Shown piece by piece: positions 27,587 through 33,312 of a DNA stretch of 64,000 nt. The notes under the pieces are model-generated. The model saw only the letters and a program-made list of their open reading frames with translations. It ran no database searches and was not told the origin of the DNA. How positions within the stretch are numbered: the stretch's first letter is position 1; every line of letters starts with the position of its first letter. A program made the position numbers and the translations under genes. The DNA lies in assembly GCA_963785235.1 (NCBI GenBank), contig CAWAUM010000011.1, positions 96,001 to 160,000 of the forward strand. Reading direction: 5' to 3'. The DNA comes from an uncultured delta proteobacterium (GTDB taxonomy: Bacteria; Desulfobacterota; Desulfomonilia; UBA1062).

Positions 27587-30295
27587 TCACGGCAGGCCCC
27601 TTCTTTCCCTCCTGCGGACAAAGAACTTCTCAATACCCACTACCACCATTATCAGGGAAGCCGCGGCAAGAATGCGAACCCAGGAATCGAGGCCGATGGG
27701 TCTGCTGTGAAAGGCGGTGTTCATGGCAGGCACATAGGTGAAGAGCAGCTGAAGGATGAACATTAGACCAGCCCCGCCGAACACCGAGAGATTGGAGAAG
27801 AACCCCACCTCGAAAACGGATTTCGTGAGAGACCGGCAGTTGAAAAGGTACATGAGTTCGCCCATGACGAACACGTTCACCGCCACGGTCCTGGCCTCTG
27901 CTATGCCTGTACCGCTGGATAATTCATACTCGAAGAGCCCGAATGCACCCAGAAGCAGCAGGAAACCCACGATGGCGATCCGCCATATGAGCGTGCGGGT
28001 GAGGATGGGCTCTTTCGGGTCGCGCGGCGCCCTCTTCATGATGCCCGGCTCCTTGGGTTCGAACACCAGCATGAGGCCCAGCAGCACGGCCGTAGTCATG
28101 TTGATCCACAGGATCTGCACCGGCAGGATGGGCAGGGTCACCCCCGCGAATATGGCCGCCAGGATCACCAGACCCTCGCCGATGTTTGTGGGCAGGGTCC
28201 AGACGATGAACTTGGTGAGGTTGTCGAAGGTTCCCCTGCCTTCCTCCACCGCCGCCTCGATGGATGCGAAGTTGTCGTCGGTGAGCACCATGTCCGAGGC
28301 CTCCTTGGCCACGTCCGTGCCCGTGATGCCCATGGCCACGCCGATATTGGCCCGCTTCAGGGCGGGCGCGTCGTTCACCCCGTCGCCGGTCATGGCCACG
28401 ATGTTTCCCCTTGCCTGCAGGGCCTCCACCAGGCGGAGCTTCTGCTCGGGGGCCACCCGGGCAAACACCGATACGTCCTCCACGATATCGATGATCTCAG
28501 CGTCGCTGATGCTGCCAGCTCCCTGCCGGTGACAACCTTCCCTGCATTGTGCAGGCCGATCCTGGCTGCGATGGCCGAGGCGGTGAGCGCATGGTCGCCG
28601 GTGATCATCTTCACGTGGATGCCGGCACTGTGGCAGTTCCTGCACCGCTTCGACGGCCTCGTTCCGGGGCGGGTCGATCATCCCCTGCAGCCCCAGGAAG
28701 GTCAGCCCCGAGGCGATATCCTTGTGGTCGATCTTTTCCCTGCCGTCCTCAATGGCCTTCCGGGCAAAGGCAAGCACCCTGAGCCCTTTGGCGGCCATGG
28801 CGTCCACGGCCGCGTGGATGGCCGCAGTATCCAGATCAACTGGAGAGCCCTGCGGGTCCAGGGCCGAGGTGCAGCGCTCCAGCAGCGCCTCGACCGATCC
28901 CTTGACAAACGCCACGGCGGTCCTCCCCGGCAGATCGCCATGCAGGGTGGCCATGTACTGGTGGTGCGATTCAAAGGGGATGGTGTCGAGACGCCTGAAC
29001 CGGGCACTCTCCTGCTCCATGAAAAGGCCGGCCTTTGCCGCTGCGGCAATGAGGGCCCCCTCGGTGGGGTCGCCCTGCACGGTGAGGCGCTCCTCCTTTT
29101 CCACGAGCAGGCTGTCGTTGCACAGCAGGCCGCACCTGAGTGTCTCCATGAGAGCCTCGGACAGAGGGCCGTCTGATTGAGCGTCTGCACGGACGATCTC
29201 GCCCTCAGACGCATAGCCGGTACCGCTCACCGTATATGCATCACTGCCGGCAGCGATCTCCTGGACCGTCATCTGGTTCTCGGTGAGCGTGCCTGTCTTG
29301 TCCGAGCAGATGACCGTGGTGCTGCCCAGGGTCTCCACGGCCGGCAGCTTGCGGATGATGGCCCGCCTCCTGGCCATGCGCGCCACGCCGATGGCGAGCG
29401 TGATGGTCATGGCTGCGGGCAGGCCCTCAGGGATGGCGCCCACGGCAAGGGCCACGGCTGCCATGAACATCTCGAAGGCACTCTGGCCTCTCAGCATACC
29501 CACCGCAAAGGTGGCCAGCGGCAAGCCCCAGGATCAGGTAGAGCAGGATCCTGCTGAATTCCGCGATCTTCTGAAGAAGCGGGGTCTCGAGTTCTTCGGT
29601 GGAAGAGATAAGCTCCGAGATGCGGCCCACCTCCGTGTTGTCGCCGATGGCCACCACCACGCCCGAAGCCTGTCCGTAGGTGACCAGGGCCGAGCCGTAG
29701 ACCATGTTCTTCCGGTCGGCCAGGATCGTATCGTGGGGAAGCTGCGCTGTGTCCTTCTCAACGGCCACGGACTCCCCGGTGAGCGCCGACTCGTCCACCT
29801 GCAGGTCCCGGGCAGGCGATCAGGCGCATATCCGCAGGGACCTTGTCTCCCGGACTGGAGCAGGACAATGTCGCCCGGCACCACCTCGGCAGAGGATATC
29901 CTCGTCTTTGCTCCCGAGCGCACGACCGTCGCTTCGGTGACCATGGTCTTTGCCAGGGCCTCCATGGCCTTGACCGCCTTGGCCTCCTGGATGAAGCCTA
30001 TGATCGCATTGACTATCACAACACCGAAGATGACCCCGGCGTCCACCCATTCCTGGAGCAGGGCCGTGATGAGCCCGGCCGCCAGAAGGATATAGACCAG
30101 GGGCTGGTGGAACTGCAGGAGAAACCGGAGCAGGGGGCTCTTGCCCTTCTTAGTGGTCAGGACATTATAACCGAAGCGCTCGCGCCGGTGGTTGATTTCG
30201 AAGAGGTCAAGGCCCCGCTCACGATCGCTTTCCAGGAGATCGACCACCTCGTCGGCTGGCAGGTAGTGCCAGTGTTTCCCGATCAGTTTATCCAT
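27587..30295 (-). CDS. Cation-transporting P-type ATPase (type IIA, Ca2+/Mn2+-like), several frameshifts
   Basis: Motifs [41 protein letters not shown] and ILWINM, distributed over several frames. Confidence 0.92.
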
Positions 30296-30348
30296 GACGT
30301 TCCTTTTAGCCCAGTGTTTTGAAACCAGCGACGTTCTCAATCTCTTCT

Positions 30349-30422: not shown

Positions 30423-30620
30423 TTAACCGGCAATACGCTTAACGGACTTGTCAGCAATTAGGTCGTTCAGTTCCTGCATCAGCACTCGTTCATGCGCATC
30501 AATCACACCGTCAGCATGGATCAACTCAAAGATCTCTTCGTACTCTGAGTTCGTGATAACATGGTCATCAATGGCTTTCTTAATGATCTCTTCAAGTTTT
30601 TTTCCGCTCTTGGTAAGCAT
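30423..30620 (-). CDS. Small acidic TerB-like protein
   Basis: RBS GGAGG; the repeated AIDDHVIT..E / HADGVIDAHE motif is typical of TerB-like helical hairpins. Confidence 0.7.
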   Translation of the reverse strand: MLTKSGKKLEEIIKKAIDDHVITNSEYEEIFELIHADGVIDAHERVLMQELNDLIADKSVKRIAG

Positions 30621-30892
30621 CTACCTTCCTCCATGCGCAGTCTGTATTGTTTGCAGCAAATTATCATATCTCACCATCTTTTTCCAGAAATTTCAATAGA
30701 TAACATGCCATCCACATGCCCTGATGTTGAGCGCCCGTGAAGCATAGATCTTGACTCAAGAAGCAGCTCTTATCGGACCTAAAAGGTTTGGTGCCACCAT
30801 AAACTAGTACAGCTGACCGGTTGGCTTCATCAATACAGGGTTTATTGTATAATTGCAGGGGGAACAGGTATTGATTGGCAAATCCCGGTCTT

Positions 30893-30987
30893 TGCCATTC
30901 TGACAATCTTAGCAGTGCCCCTGAGGTCATTTTGTCATTTTGTACCCACCCACATCCTTGCAGGGAGCTTTTTTTGCCAAAATGACA
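30893..30987. promoter_or_regulatory. Candidate enhancer (bEBP UAS) sites
   Basis: TGCCA-TTC-TGACA (30893), GGTCA-TTT-TGTCA (30925) and TGCCA-AAA-TGACA (30975), upstream of a sigma54 promoter. Confidence 0.55.
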
Positions 30988-31022
30988 ATTCCAGGAAAGG
31001 CCATTACATGAATGTTTTATGA

Positions 31023-31035
31023 TATCAATAAGTTA
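31023..31035 (+). promoter_or_regulatory. IHF site
   Basis: TATCAATAAGTTA is an exact WATCAANNNNTTR match between the UAS and the -24 element. Confidence 0.6.
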
Positions 31036-31050
31036 TAAGTTGCCAGAACC

Positions 31051-31065
31051 TGGCACGCCCCTTGC
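31051..31065 (+). promoter_or_regulatory. Sigma54 -24/-12 promoter
   Basis: TGGCAC-GCCCC-TTGC, a consensus match. Confidence 0.85.
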
Positions 31066-31112
31066 CTTATATGAAGTAGAAAGAAAAAAAGAAACCCCAG
31101 GAGGGCAAGACA

Positions 31113-31289
31113 ATGATGACATTATGGATCGTAATCGGCGCACTGTTCATGACCGGCATAGGGATCAGGTTCACCTACAAGGTATTGGGACTCACCCCGG
31201 TAGAAGCAAGCGCGGTATTCGTCCTGGTGGTCGCCCTGGTAACCATCAACACCGGCCCGGCACGTGAGATCCTCATGAGCCTGTTCTAA
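31113..31289 (+). CDS. 58-aa two-TM membrane protein (not in the ORF track)
   Basis: RBS AGGAGG; MMTLWIVIGALFMTGIGIRFTYKVLGLTPVEASAVFVLVVALVTINTGPAREILMSLF; similar to the 32154-32429 product. Confidence 0.8.
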   Translation: MMTLWIVIGALFMTGIGIRFTYKVLGLTPVEASAVFVLVVALVTINTGPAREILMSLF

Positions 31290-31329
31290 GGCAGGACTCA
31301 GATAGAAAAAAAGGATAAGGAGGAAGGCC

Positions 31330-31569
31330 ATGAAGACAAAGAAAGAAAAGATCGAAAAGGCACTGGCCAACAGGCTCAGCAGGATAAGCGCATACAGCCT
31401 GGTGCTCGTTATGATGACCTTCCTCGGACTCTACGGCGGCATGTATCTGGACAGGGTTCTCGGCATGGCACCCAACTTCACGATGGTAGGACTGGTGGCC
31501 GGCATAGCACTGGGCTTCAAGGGGTTCATCGAAGAGGTCGTGATCGAGAGAAAGGTAAAGAGGGCATAG
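31330..31569 (+). CDS. AtpZ/AtpI-family small membrane protein
   Basis: GLYGGMYLDRVLGMAPNFTMVGLVAGIALGF matches the G..LD...T.P.F...G...G pattern; RBS AAGGAGG. Confidence 0.8.
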   Translation: MKTKKEKIEKALANRLSRISAYSLVLVMMTFLGLYGGMYLDRVLGMAPNFTMVGLVAGIALGFKGFIEEVVIERKVKRA

Positions 31570-31571
31570 CC

Positions 31572-31676
31572 ATGACAGTCATCTTTGTAATTGTTGGCTT
31601 CACGGCATTCCTGGCCCTGACTGCACGGTTCGTGAAACGCGCAGGGCATGCTGCCAGGGCAGCGCAGATCCGGTAA
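31572..31676 (+). CDS. Putative 34-aa single-TM small protein
   Basis: MTVIFVIVGFTAFLALTARFVKRAGHAARAAQIR starts 2 nt after the previous stop and ends before the terminator. Confidence 0.5.
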   Translation: MTVIFVIVGFTAFLALTARFVKRAGHAARAAQIR

Positions 31677-31727
31677 TCGAACAGGCCTCCAGCGAACTTC
31701 CTCCCCGGGAACGATCCATATCACACA

Positions 31728-31757
31728 CCACGGCCCCGAAAGGGTCGTGTTTTTTTA
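31728..31757 (+). terminator. Intrinsic terminator of the left mini-operon
   Basis: CACGGCCCC-GAAA-GGGTCGTG followed by TTTTTTT. Confidence 0.8.
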
Positions 31758-31857
31758 TTCAACTGATTATCCTGCGAGAAGCAACGGGCCGCCTTGAGGG
31801 CGACCCGCATTCGTGATGTAGGCTGCCGGATTGTAACCCGGCTTTCTTGAGTATCGA

Positions 31858-32121
31858 CTAGGACTGGTATCTGACCCTGCGGTTGTTCAACTCATCTTTG
31901 GCCTTTGTGTAGTCCGTGAACATCCGTGCAAAGCACAATCCCATGCCCAGCACAAACAAACCAAGCATGAAGGTCGGTTCCGTATTGAACTTCACATCGA
32001 TCCACCGGCCTGCGAACAGGAACAGGAACGAGGAGATAACCAGGGTGAAGCTCCATGCGCTCAGCAGGATGATCTGATTCAGCGTCTTGGTCTGGAGTCT
32101 GTTTCTTCGTACCCTTTTCAT
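31858..32121 (-). CDS. AtpZ/AtpI-family small membrane protein (second copy)
   Basis: AGRWIDVKFNTEPTFMLGLFVLGMGL pattern; RBS GGAGG. Confidence 0.8.
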   Translation of the reverse strand: MKRVRRNRLQTKTLNQIILLSAWSFTLVISSFLFLFAGRWIDVKFNTEPTFMLGLFVLGMGLCFARMFTDYTKAKDELNNRRVRYQS

Positions 32122-32153
32122 GGCCTCCCCTCCTTTTTTTATTGATAATCTTC

Positions 32154-32429
32154 TCAGCTGATCATGCCTTTAACTGCTTCAAGGACCGGAGCAGTGAACA
32201 AGGCCACGAGCACGGCATACAGTGCGAAAGATCCGATTGCCTCACTGATATAAATCTTCTCATAGCGATACTTCAAAGAAATGATGGTGAGCCCGCCCAT
32301 GATCAGACAACCAAGGTGGAAGTACGGTAAGCTGTTGCCGCCGGAAACTGCTGTTGCTGCAAAAGCAAACGTACCAGTGATCATTACCACGAACATTGCT
32401 ACGATTATTGTCTGGATTGTCCTTTTCAT
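32154..32429 (-). CDS. 91-aa membrane protein with signal-like leader, paralogue of 31113-31289
   Basis: RBS GGAGG; leader ...TFAFA|A followed by two hydrophobic segments ending SEAIGSFALYAVLVALFTAP. Confidence 0.8.
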   Translation of the reverse strand: MKRTIQTIIVAMFVVMITGTFAFAATAVSGGNSLPYFHLGCLIMGGLTIISLKYRYEKIYISEAIGSFALYAVLVALFTAPVLEAVKGMIS

Positions 32430-32468
32430 TGTCTGACCTCCACTTTGTTTTTTTATACTATTTATAAG

Positions 32469-32483
32469 GCATACATTGTGCCA
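32469..32483 (-). promoter_or_regulatory. Sigma54 -24/-12 promoter
   Basis: Minus strand TGGCAC-AATGT-ATGC, followed by CTTAT as in the left promoter; 40 bp upstream of the ATG. Confidence 0.8.
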
Positions 32484-32844
32484 ACTCTGTGGCATGTGAG
32501 CATAATACCTTTCATCATATTGTTAATATTGATTATTAGATGAATTTCCATTCATCTGAGATCCGGTAGAAACATATAAAAACCATGATTCATTCGATGG
32601 AATGTTCAAAGGGATTGAATGAAACGTGTGAAATGCAGGACAACAAGTTGAATAAGAGTCCCTCGAGGGTCGACATTGATTAAGACCGTAAAAATCCTCT
32701 AAAACGAAAATATCGCAAATCTCACTTCAAGGTTAAAACCCTAGTCTCAAGCTTATAAAATAAATCAGTACGCCTAAAAAACAGTACACCATAAAACCAA
32801 TACAGAAGCCAATCTACAACGATATTACCATATATTTTTTCATA

Positions 32845-32879: not shown

Positions 32880-32955
32880 TGGTGGGCCATCCTGGGCTCG
32901 AACCAGGGACCTACTGATTAAGAGTCAGTTGCTCTACCAGTTGAGCTAATGGCCC
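32880..32955 (-). tRNA. tRNA-Lys(CUU)
   Basis: Reverse complement GGGCCATTAGCTCAACTGGTAGAGC...CT-CTT-AA...CCA. Confidence 0.96.
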
Positions 32956-32966
32956 ATATCTATCTT

Positions 32967-33043
32967 TGGTACGCCCGGGGCGACTCGAACGCCCGACCTG
33001 CGGATTCGAAGTCCGACGCTCTATCCAACTGAGCTACGGGCGC
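32967..33043 (-). tRNA. tRNA-Arg(UCG)
   Basis: Reverse complement GCGCCCGTAGCTCAGTTGGATAGAGC...CT-TCG-AA...CCA. Confidence 0.93.
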
Positions 33044-33055
33044 TCACCTTCAAAT

Positions 33056-33132
33056 TGGGGTGAGTGAAGGGGATCGAACCCTCGACCGCAGGAGCCACAA
33101 TCCTGTGCTCTACCATCTGAGCTACACTCACC
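33056..33132 (-). tRNA. tRNA-His(GUG)
   Basis: G-1, anticodon loop TT-GTG-GC, C discriminator and CCA. Confidence 0.96.
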
Positions 33133-33140
33133 ATATGCTC

Positions 33141-33217
<77 letters not shown>

Positions 33218-33234
33218 CCACTTAGGCCCCGCTA

Positions 33235-33312
<78 letters not shown>

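Follow-up and report, generated by a model that had tools for sequence, protein, structure and literature searches.

Multi-copy cassettes with sigma54-type promoters encode AtpZ-family proteins and small membrane hairpins probably related to ATP-synthase c subunits in a family of Desulfomonilia

The stretch of DNA analysed in this report, referred to as the window, comprises 64,000 nucleotides of contig CAWAUM010000011.1 of an uncultured delta proteobacterium (GenBank assembly GCA_963785235.1). Two facing mini-operons, called the A and B cassettes, form a twin unit at positions 30890..32632 of the window, in which they are arranged tail to tail. Each encodes a small two-helix membrane protein and a protein of the AtpZ/AtpQ family, and each is preceded by a promoter of the -24/-12 (sigma54) type. 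The two operons are members of a lineage-specific family of multi-copy, self-contained cassettes, and profile comparisons indicate that the first protein of each cassette probably derives, by common descent, from the c subunit of ATP synthase.

The A cassette is located on the forward strand. Its upstream activator region (30890..30990, +), recognised from columns that are invariant in the seven A copies of the genome, contains three dyad-like sites (TGYCA-N3-TGNNA) spaced ~40 nt apart. An IHF-like site, TATCAATAAGTTA (31023..31035, +), revealed by the alignment of the same seven copies, lies between the activator sites and the promoter TGGCACGCCCCTTGC (TGGCAC-N5-TTGC; 31051-31065, +). Three open reading frames (ORFs) follow. 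A58 (31113-31289, +), which has a strong ribosome-binding site, encodes a 58-residue two-helix membrane protein; A79 (31330-31569, +) encodes a 79-residue AtpZ/AtpQ-family protein; and A34 (31572-31676, +), an ORF present in all seven copies, encodes a 34-residue single-helix protein with a basic tail. An intrinsic terminator (31729-31757, +), consisting of a hairpin with an 8-bp stem (6 GC pairs) and a run of seven T residues, closes the cassette. In blastn comparisons with the rest of the genome, the A repeat stops at this terminator.

The B cassette is located on the reverse strand. The upstream region (32500..32632, -), as judged from the alignment of four B copies, is rich in ATTCAT/ATGAAT dyads that are unlike the A sites, and is followed by the promoter TGGCACAATGTATGC (TGGCAC-N5-ATGC; 32483-32469, -). 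B91 (32429-32154, -) encodes a 91-residue protein featuring a signal-peptide-like NH2 terminus and a two-helix core similar to A58, and B87 (32121-31858, -) encodes an 87-residue AtpZ/AtpQ-family protein. The promoters, ORFs and terminator of the two units, including the 58-residue ORF, had all been listed in the initial annotation and were all found in place. Both promoters run on into GCCTTATA, the common end that the same annotation had recognised, and the assignment of the two AtpZ-like ORFs to ATPase_gene1 (PF09527) is borne out by scores of 39.4 (A79) and 37.2 bits (B87), set against a cut-off of 26.6. The B cassette is bracketed by an imperfect inverted repeat of 21 nt (31755-31775 / 32635-32655, 86% complementary). 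The outer arm of this repeat is shared by the copy of the twin unit on contig C2 of the assembly, not by the B copies on contigs C5 and C12.

The genome contains 15 PF09527 matches, corresponding to seven A cassettes, five B cassettes, the canonical atpZ, the atpQ gene of an N-ATPase operon, and one orphan on contig C5, which is a close paralogue of atpZ. The AtpZ-like proteins of all 12 cassettes exceed the PF09527 cut-off in the genome search. A cassettes encode proteins of 58, 79 and 34 residues, and B cassettes a 91-residue protein and an AtpZ-like protein of 87-100 residues. A separate -24/-12 site precedes every cassette, 50-60 nt 5' of the first start codon. The twin unit of the window is one of three copies, the others being located at C5:538395-536651 (92.2% identity over 1747 nt, blastn) and C2:265442-267583 (89.8% identity over 2154 nt). 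For the A half by itself, there are further matches at C1:581347-582215 (91.6%) and C2:37655-36830 (94.4%).

The sequence context of the cassettes varies. A split P-type ATPase gene and a tRNA cluster adjoin the twin unit of the window; elsewhere the neighbours include the end of atpAGDC, an amidase gene with a two-component system, a Fur-catalase region, and a Na+/H+ exchanger gene (C5). Since neighbouring genes vary from copy to copy, each cassette is self-contained. The adjacent P-type ATPase was considered as a partner and rejected, as the neighbours of other copies are unrelated to it. The canonical atpZ-atpI-atpB-atpE operon, on contig C1, is intact and separate from the cassettes; it keeps its own atpZ and atpI, the point for which the initial annotation had asked that the operon be located. 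The N-ATPase operon with atpQ, on contig C7, is likewise intact and separate. None of the cassette PF09527 genes heads an F-type or N-type atp operon or lies within one. The claim that the cassettes lie away from any atp operon thus holds for the window, but one sister A copy is located 1.4 kb 3' of atpAGDC. A TumE toxin / HVO_A0114-type gene pair is found between atpC and that A cassette (L009:7431-8164, corresponding to C1:580431-581164).

Identity among five close A copies is 99% for ORF58 and ORF79, 75% for the activator region, and 34-40% for the flanks; A58 is the same in five copies of the genome. The contrast between coding, activator and flanking identities points to gene conversion, by which the A copies would evolve in concert. 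Pooled ratios of nonsynonymous to synonymous variation (pN/pS) are below 1 for all five ORFs (B91 0.14, A79 0.21, B87 0.21, A58 0.32 and A34 0.70). As judged from these ratios, purifying selection acts on four of the five ORFs (0.14-0.32) and is weaker for A34.

To our knowledge, the Desulfomonilia family to which this genome belongs is represented by metagenome-assembled genomes only. A58 is found in 49 of its 51 genomes (48 strong matches and one weak), with one to seven A copies per genome, and B91 in 32 of the 51. In the sister family, none of 70 genomes gives a strong A58 match, and a single weak match is spurious. The module had been described as a duplicated one. It is repeated, yet it is not a mere pair, given the seven A and five B copies of this genome and the range of A copy numbers in the family. 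The 223 database relatives of A58 are all labelled "hypothetical" and come from metagenome bins of Desulfomonilia or Deltaproteobacteria. The A58 profile finds only 16 clusters among 1.84 billion representatives, and a search of the ESM Atlas returned unnamed clusters only. PF00137 (c subunit) matches number three to nine per genome in the family, except for one in a 71%-complete genome, and one or two in the sister family.

Gene content and layout were surveyed using 72 full-length A58 matches, fetched from 35 other genomes of the family, and 66 B91 matches, also from other genomes of the family. An AtpZ-like gene lies next to A58 in 54/72 A copies, and an AtpZ-like ORF follows B91 in 43/66 B copies. 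The pairing of small protein and AtpZ-like protein is accordingly conserved, as anticipated, although the AtpZ-like gene is not obligatory. Some of the A copies that lack it consist of the 58-residue and 34-residue genes only, and at least one of the 58-residue gene alone. Convergent twins, the form originally reported, are present here but prove to be the minority form, found in 3/7 A copies of this genome and in 5/72 A copies elsewhere, all of which belong to one genus.

The motif TGGCAC-N5-WTGC occurs at only two sites in the window, which are the two cassette promoters; 0.31 sites are expected, and two are reached in 3 of 100 shuffled sequences. The genome encodes rpoN (C11:186555-187031) and has 34 PF00158 matches, corresponding to ~30 genes for enhancer-binding activators. 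The three A dyads sit 75-160 nt 5' of the promoter and are conserved in all seven A copies. Clusters of at least two such dyads within 110 nt are found at exactly seven places in the 3.9-Mb genome, which are the seven A cassettes, and among the 90 -24/-12 matches of the genome A-type dyads accompany A-cassette promoters only. Two of the three sites in the window together make one inverted repeat. All seven A copies carry the block ATCA-T-AGTTATAA with little or no variation. The block at 31023..31035 fits the IHF consensus WATCAANNNNTTR.

A and B cassettes are alike in their -12 regions and 5' leaders and differ in their upstream activator sites, and therefore probably answer to different activators, forming two regulons. 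The B upstream region shows 88% mean identity among the three twin copies. Fuzzy genome-wide searches with the B-type activator motif gave scattered matches and demonstrated no specificity for B cassettes. A -24/-12 match at C3:22869 (-) precedes a 74-residue ORF, and a B-like ATGAAT dyad with three mismatches to the block of the window lies ~110 nt upstream, at C3:22980. The B activator might also act on this ORF.

The initial annotation had suggested a survey of relatives for -24/-12 motifs; the motif does recur there, at a fixed distance from the start codon. In A copies from other genomes, the motif is located 51-69 nt 5' of the start codon in 68 of 72 cases; of the four remaining copies, three have at most 45 nt of upstream sequence on their contig and the fourth has 90 nt. 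For B copies the strict motif is present in 35/66. A relaxed form, TGGCA[CT]-N5-NT[GCT]C, is found 54-70 nt 5' of the ATG in 61 of the 62 copies in which the start was located by script, and the site is visible in all four others.

The NtrC-type regulator gene (C2:38588-39955) located beside the A copy at C2:37487 was considered as a source of the activator. Its orthologue adjoins a cassette in only 2 of 14 genomes of the genus, and two genera that have A cassettes show no match at E ≤ 1e-120; the link was rejected as unproven. Two sister species have the orthologue immediately next to a cassette, in differing arrangements (L156, L050 (G003:C15:45314-49324) and L154 (G004:C39)), and such positions could represent either a hotspot or what is left of a functional link. 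Local inverted repeats are present in which the ORF79 coding sequence pairs with the 3' end of ORF58 and with the ribosome-binding site of ORF79. RNAalifold found no conserved pair in 55 sequences, and no Rfam match was obtained; because of the absence of conserved pairs in the RNAalifold analysis, an RNA switch is not claimed.

The small proteins of the two cassettes are related to each other. The initial annotation regarded the A and B proteins as divergent paralogues. This is evident by BLASTP for the AtpZ-like proteins A79 and B87 (27% identity, E 2e-10). It fails by BLASTP for A58 and B91 (E 3.1) and is recovered for them by profile comparison: hhalign matches residues 6-58 of A58, that is, its whole length, with residues 37-90 of B91 at a probability of 82.9% (E 9.2e-6). 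Moreover, when a hidden Markov model (HMM) of A58 is searched against all ORFs of the genome, the five B91 copies occupy ranks 8-12, directly after the seven A58 copies. Based on the profile alignment and the HMM ranks, B91 is best described as a signal-peptide-like extension followed by an A58-like hairpin. A34, which is represented by 39 distinct sequences in the 72 A loci, aligns from its first residue with residues 1-25 of A58 (hhalign probability 50%, E 1.6e-4), and an A34 HMM places A58 copies at ranks 1 and 3-7 in the same set of ORFs. A34 is possibly a copy of the first helix of A58. A Pfam search assigned none of A58, A34 and B91 to a family at E ≤ 1. The AlphaFold2 model of A58 is a helical hairpin (helices at 2-25 and 29-45) with a predicted local distance difference test (pLDDT) score of 90.

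An HMM built from A58 sequences only was searched against 177,635 PDB sequences and gave six matches at E ≤ 10. All six are ATP-synthase c subunits (best E 0.016), and the c1 chain of Acetobacterium woodii, a species with unusual c subunits, is among them. In the six-frame ORF set of the genome (20,514 ORFs), the same profile ranks the A58 and B91 copies highest, with the four c subunits immediately behind them at ranks 13, 14, 15 and 19. All four align with A58 in one register, in which E31 falls on the ion-binding Glu of c-subunit helix 2, and the invariant Pro of A58 on the c-subunit Pro, 18 residues past the Glu. Conversely, a profile made from 18 c subunits of relatives has the four c genes at the top of its ranking, and positions 5-10 are taken by six A58 copies. 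A profile of AtpZ79, which is just as hydrophobic, served as a control; with it, c subunits fall at ranks 528 and 1097. The sequence relation of A58 to c subunits is specific and goes beyond composition. Direct comparison by hhalign gives a probability of 29.7% for A58 and of 37.8% for a joint A58 and B91 profile; at low stringency the alignment takes in both helices and opens a gap of 20 residues where the c subunit has its loop.

In 117 aligned sequences, the Glu is conserved in 117 and the Pro in 115. The helix-1 glycines G9, G15 and G17 are conserved in 117, 115 and 91 sequences, respectively, in a helix covered by weak secondary HMM alignments only. A58 lacks the R(N/Q)P polar loop of c subunits, and a short basic stretch of ~6-8 residues is found in its place; the positive charge of this loop is consistent with a c-type topology. 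In addition, the signal-peptide-like extension of B91 resembles those of the c subunits of the same genome. A58 differs from c subunits in size (58 residues, as opposed to ~75-90 mature residues), in its loop, and in the location of its genes, which are multi-copy, lie outside atp operons, and are preceded by sigma54-type promoters; GxGxGxG appears to be only partly kept. These features suggest, with fair confidence, that A58 is a two-helix hairpin that would have kept the membrane-embedded, ion-binding Glu and the Pro and lost the loop contacting F1. The resemblance of A58 to c subunits is a new result. We describe the small proteins as putative c-derived mini-proteolipids and do not file them as c subunits, because they fall short of two defining features of that family, namely the Pfam profile score and the loop that contacts F1.

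In addition to the c genes of the F-type and N-type ATPases, the genome carries two orphan c-subunit genes, at C2:184612-184989 (-) and C1:729292-729660 (+) (loci L212 and L213), with signal-peptide-like NH2 termini. Each is followed by a gene for one of two paralogous, sensor-like dCache membrane proteins of ~430 residues. The C2 gene, which scores best among the c genes with the A58 profile, has a -24/-12 match ~90 nt upstream. In one relative that lacks A58, G016:C297:5558-7237 contains seven consecutive PF00137 matches, six in one 492-residue frame and the seventh in an 83-residue frame. The 492-residue frame would be a fused multi-hairpin c subunit.

AtpZ/AtpQ-family genes normally head Fo gene clusters. 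Public sources label A79 as an "AtpZ/AtpI family protein". A79 and B87 have the size and two-helix build of AtpZ of B. pseudofirmus OF4 and of AtpQ ("gene 1" of N-ATPases), and keep the conserved G-x-x-x-D ... P-x-F stretch. In contrast to those proteins, they are encoded in multiple copies under sigma54-type promoters, beside a hairpin protein and not beside atpI, atpB or atpE. Cassette members score 37-42 bits with PF09527, versus 57-63 bits for the atp-linked members of the genome. As in the AtpQ-AtpR pair of N-ATPases, a PF09527 protein adjoins a second small membrane protein, but the gene order in the cassettes is reversed. Likeness of the small partner to AtpR (PF12966) was considered and rejected, as hhalign to the AtpR of the genome gives probabilities of 0.1% (A58) and 0.6% (B91) and Pfam gives no match. 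AtpI/UncI is also a small membrane protein encoded beside a c-type hairpin, and the proposed partnership in the cassettes is modelled on it. No published description of such cassettes was found, in line with the statement that they match no described system; most subscription journals and supplements lay outside the literature covered.

Contigs from four runs labelled as metatranscriptomic, belonging to three studies, cover the coding parts of both cassettes when placed at ≥85% likeness, and one 569-nt contig spans 31122-31685, a stretch touching all three A genes. The four runs contain only 5-10% of the sampled words, too small a share for a habitat to be named. The regulon is probably highly expressed. 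The stretches 30700-31054, 31765-31835 and 32475-32800 are free of contigs from the four runs. Interpretation of these gaps as transcript ends was rejected because the contigs come from relatives with diverging non-coding DNA and because loose contig ends lie at 31107-31112.

The c-ring sets the number of ions spent per ATP, and in the textbook view this number is fixed per species. We tentatively propose that the cassettes act as inducible modules for proteolipid rings, which change how ions flow through machinery of the Fo type. Dedicated enhancer-binding activators, one for A and another for B, would sense a signal, upon which sigma54 polymerase would fire all copies at once and mini-proteolipids would flood the membrane. 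With the AtpZ-like protein as their membrane partner, the mini-proteolipids might assemble into c-type rings that lack the loop, or they might join the F-type or N-type c-rings already present. Rings of either kind would still bind H+ or Na+ and could not grip F1. The effect would be a regulated change of ion flow, namely a leak, a brake or an altered coupling ratio. A high gene dosage fits a ring subunit that is needed in many copies, and the earlier guess that the module is an ATP-synthase modulator or a small ion conduit gains a concrete basis from the resemblance of the first protein to the c subunit. A narrower version, in which the loop-less c subunits and their private AtpZ-type partner act as switchable rotor parts that enter or replace F- or N-type c-rings and tune the ion-to-ATP ratio or the Fo leak, appears unlikely. 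If the proposal is correct, c-like hairpins without an F1-binding loop would represent a new regulation of ion-coupled energy conversion, and the AtpZ/AtpQ proteins, the function of which is unsettled, would gain a testable partner. Should the rotor idea prove mistaken, it still stands that a tightly conserved regulon of unannotated membrane proteins of 34-91 residues is now defined, and that its promoter, activator sites and distribution are described.

Several results weigh against this proposal, or against parts of it. No single E-value of the c-subunit comparison is significant, and all hhalign probabilities of that comparison are below 40%. The Pfam PF00137 model matches none of 27 A58 and none of 25 B91 members at E ≤ 10, and at the same threshold its search of the genome returns the four true c genes and one unrelated weak match, and no cassette. 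The confident part of the alignment covers helix 2 only, and the GxGxGxG motif of helix 1 appears to be only partly present. B91 alone is barely c-like (hhalign 2.6%, ORF ranks of 22-218), and c subunits are absent from the PDB matches of its profile; the link of B91 to c subunits consequently runs only through A58. A Foldseek search of the A58 model against the PDB gave nothing at E ≤ 0.001, and its top rows, NaK channels at E ≥ 4.5, carry no meaning for a hairpin of 58 residues. Regulation is also affected. In 25/61 B promoters of other genomes the -12 element reads TTCC or TTTC, without the canonical GC, which makes the sigma54 call weaker for those copies, and none of the regulators of the genome could be tied to A or B when an assignment of the activators was attempted. 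The RNA-library contigs come from relatives and indicate presence in RNA libraries, not start, strand or level. The AtpZ-like gene is missing from 18/72 A copies, and no AtpZ-like ORF was detected after 23/66 B copies elsewhere; absence of the partner from a quarter of the A copies means that A58 can evidently work without a cis-encoded one. Furthermore, according to PMC2881411, the protein with a documented role as c-ring chaperone is AtpI (PF03899), with AtpI/UncI-assisted assembly of the ring cited from Suzuki et al. 2007, rather than a member of AtpZ/AtpQ (PF09527), a family without significant similarity to that of AtpI. According to PMC4453477, genetics instead links AtpZ of Bacillus pseudofirmus to Mg2+ acquisition, and a connection of AtpZ with mitochondrial Ca2+ uniporters has been suggested.

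These last observations favour a stand-alone inducible cation channel or uptake system (e.g., for Mg2+, Ca2+, H+ or Na+), formed jointly by the hairpin protein and its AtpZ-like neighbour, that acts independently of ATP synthase. On this view, which we consider rather doubtful, the c-subunit likeness would stem only from common ancestry or from a similar packing of helices. The invariant membrane-embedded Glu suits it, as does the location of 6/7 A copies and of all B copies examined apart from atp operons, and among the varied neighbours are the P-type cation ATPase of the window and the Na+/H+ exchanger at C5. Neighbours this inconsistent, however, provide no functional link, and the AtpZ-like gene is dispensable in the 18/72 A copies noted above. 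A likeness to c subunits that is both specific and reciprocal demands, at a minimum, an assembly of the ring type. Alternatively, the small proteins might stabilise or repair the membrane after an envelope insult, as part of a generic membrane-stress regulon resembling the phage-shock protein (Psp) system, with the c-likeness arising from convergence of glycine- and alanine-rich hairpins. The Psp regulon of enterobacteria combines small membrane proteins, sigma54 promoters, a dedicated activator and an IHF-type architecture with single-copy genes. The sigma54-type promoters and IHF-like layout of the cassettes recall it, and sigma54 control, many copies and an apparently high abundance in RNA-library contigs would fit a bulk stress protein; likewise, the c-likeness E-values are individually weak and the Pfam c-subunit model is silent. 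We nonetheless hold this explanation to be improbable. No sequence relation between Psp components and the cassettes was found, no Psp family is among the Pfam matches of the two AtpZ-like ORFs, the other three ORFs having no match, and Psp includes no AtpZ or c-like component. Convergence would leave unexplained the shared register, the Glu and Pro at c-subunit spacing and the reciprocal top ranks, given that the control profile places c subunits no higher than rank 528, and it would not account for the constant company of an Fo-associated family either.

The near-identity of multi-copy cassettes in unrelated contexts also recalls a selfish or addiction-type repeated element, such as a small hydrophobic toxin with a protective partner, spread by recombination. 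The inverted repeat flanking the B unit of the window and the TumE-type toxin-antitoxin pair adjoining one A copy point the same way. Yet the flanks examined contain no transposase, integrase or target-site duplication, and the inverted repeat is not common to all B copies, being absent at C5 and C12. Each copy features host-type activator sites and a sigma54 promoter, and almost all genomes of the family contain the cassettes, which are under purifying selection. A selfish origin is, in our judgement, highly improbable.

The window contains a few additional features. A P-type cation ATPase gene (27587-30340, -) encodes the Cation_ATPase_N, E1-E2, hydrolase and Cation_ATPase_C domains and is split into ORFs of 268 and 645 residues. 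Other genes of the assembly also look split, for instance atpA and the gene of an AMP-binding enzyme (locus L009), and frameshifts in the assembly and pseudogenes are equally likely explanations. Upstream of the P-type ATPase gene, a 65-residue acidic ORF without a Pfam match is located at 30423-30620 (-). On the other side of the twin unit, five tRNA genes (Lys, Arg, His, Arg and Pro; 32880-33312, -) directly adjoin the B cassette.

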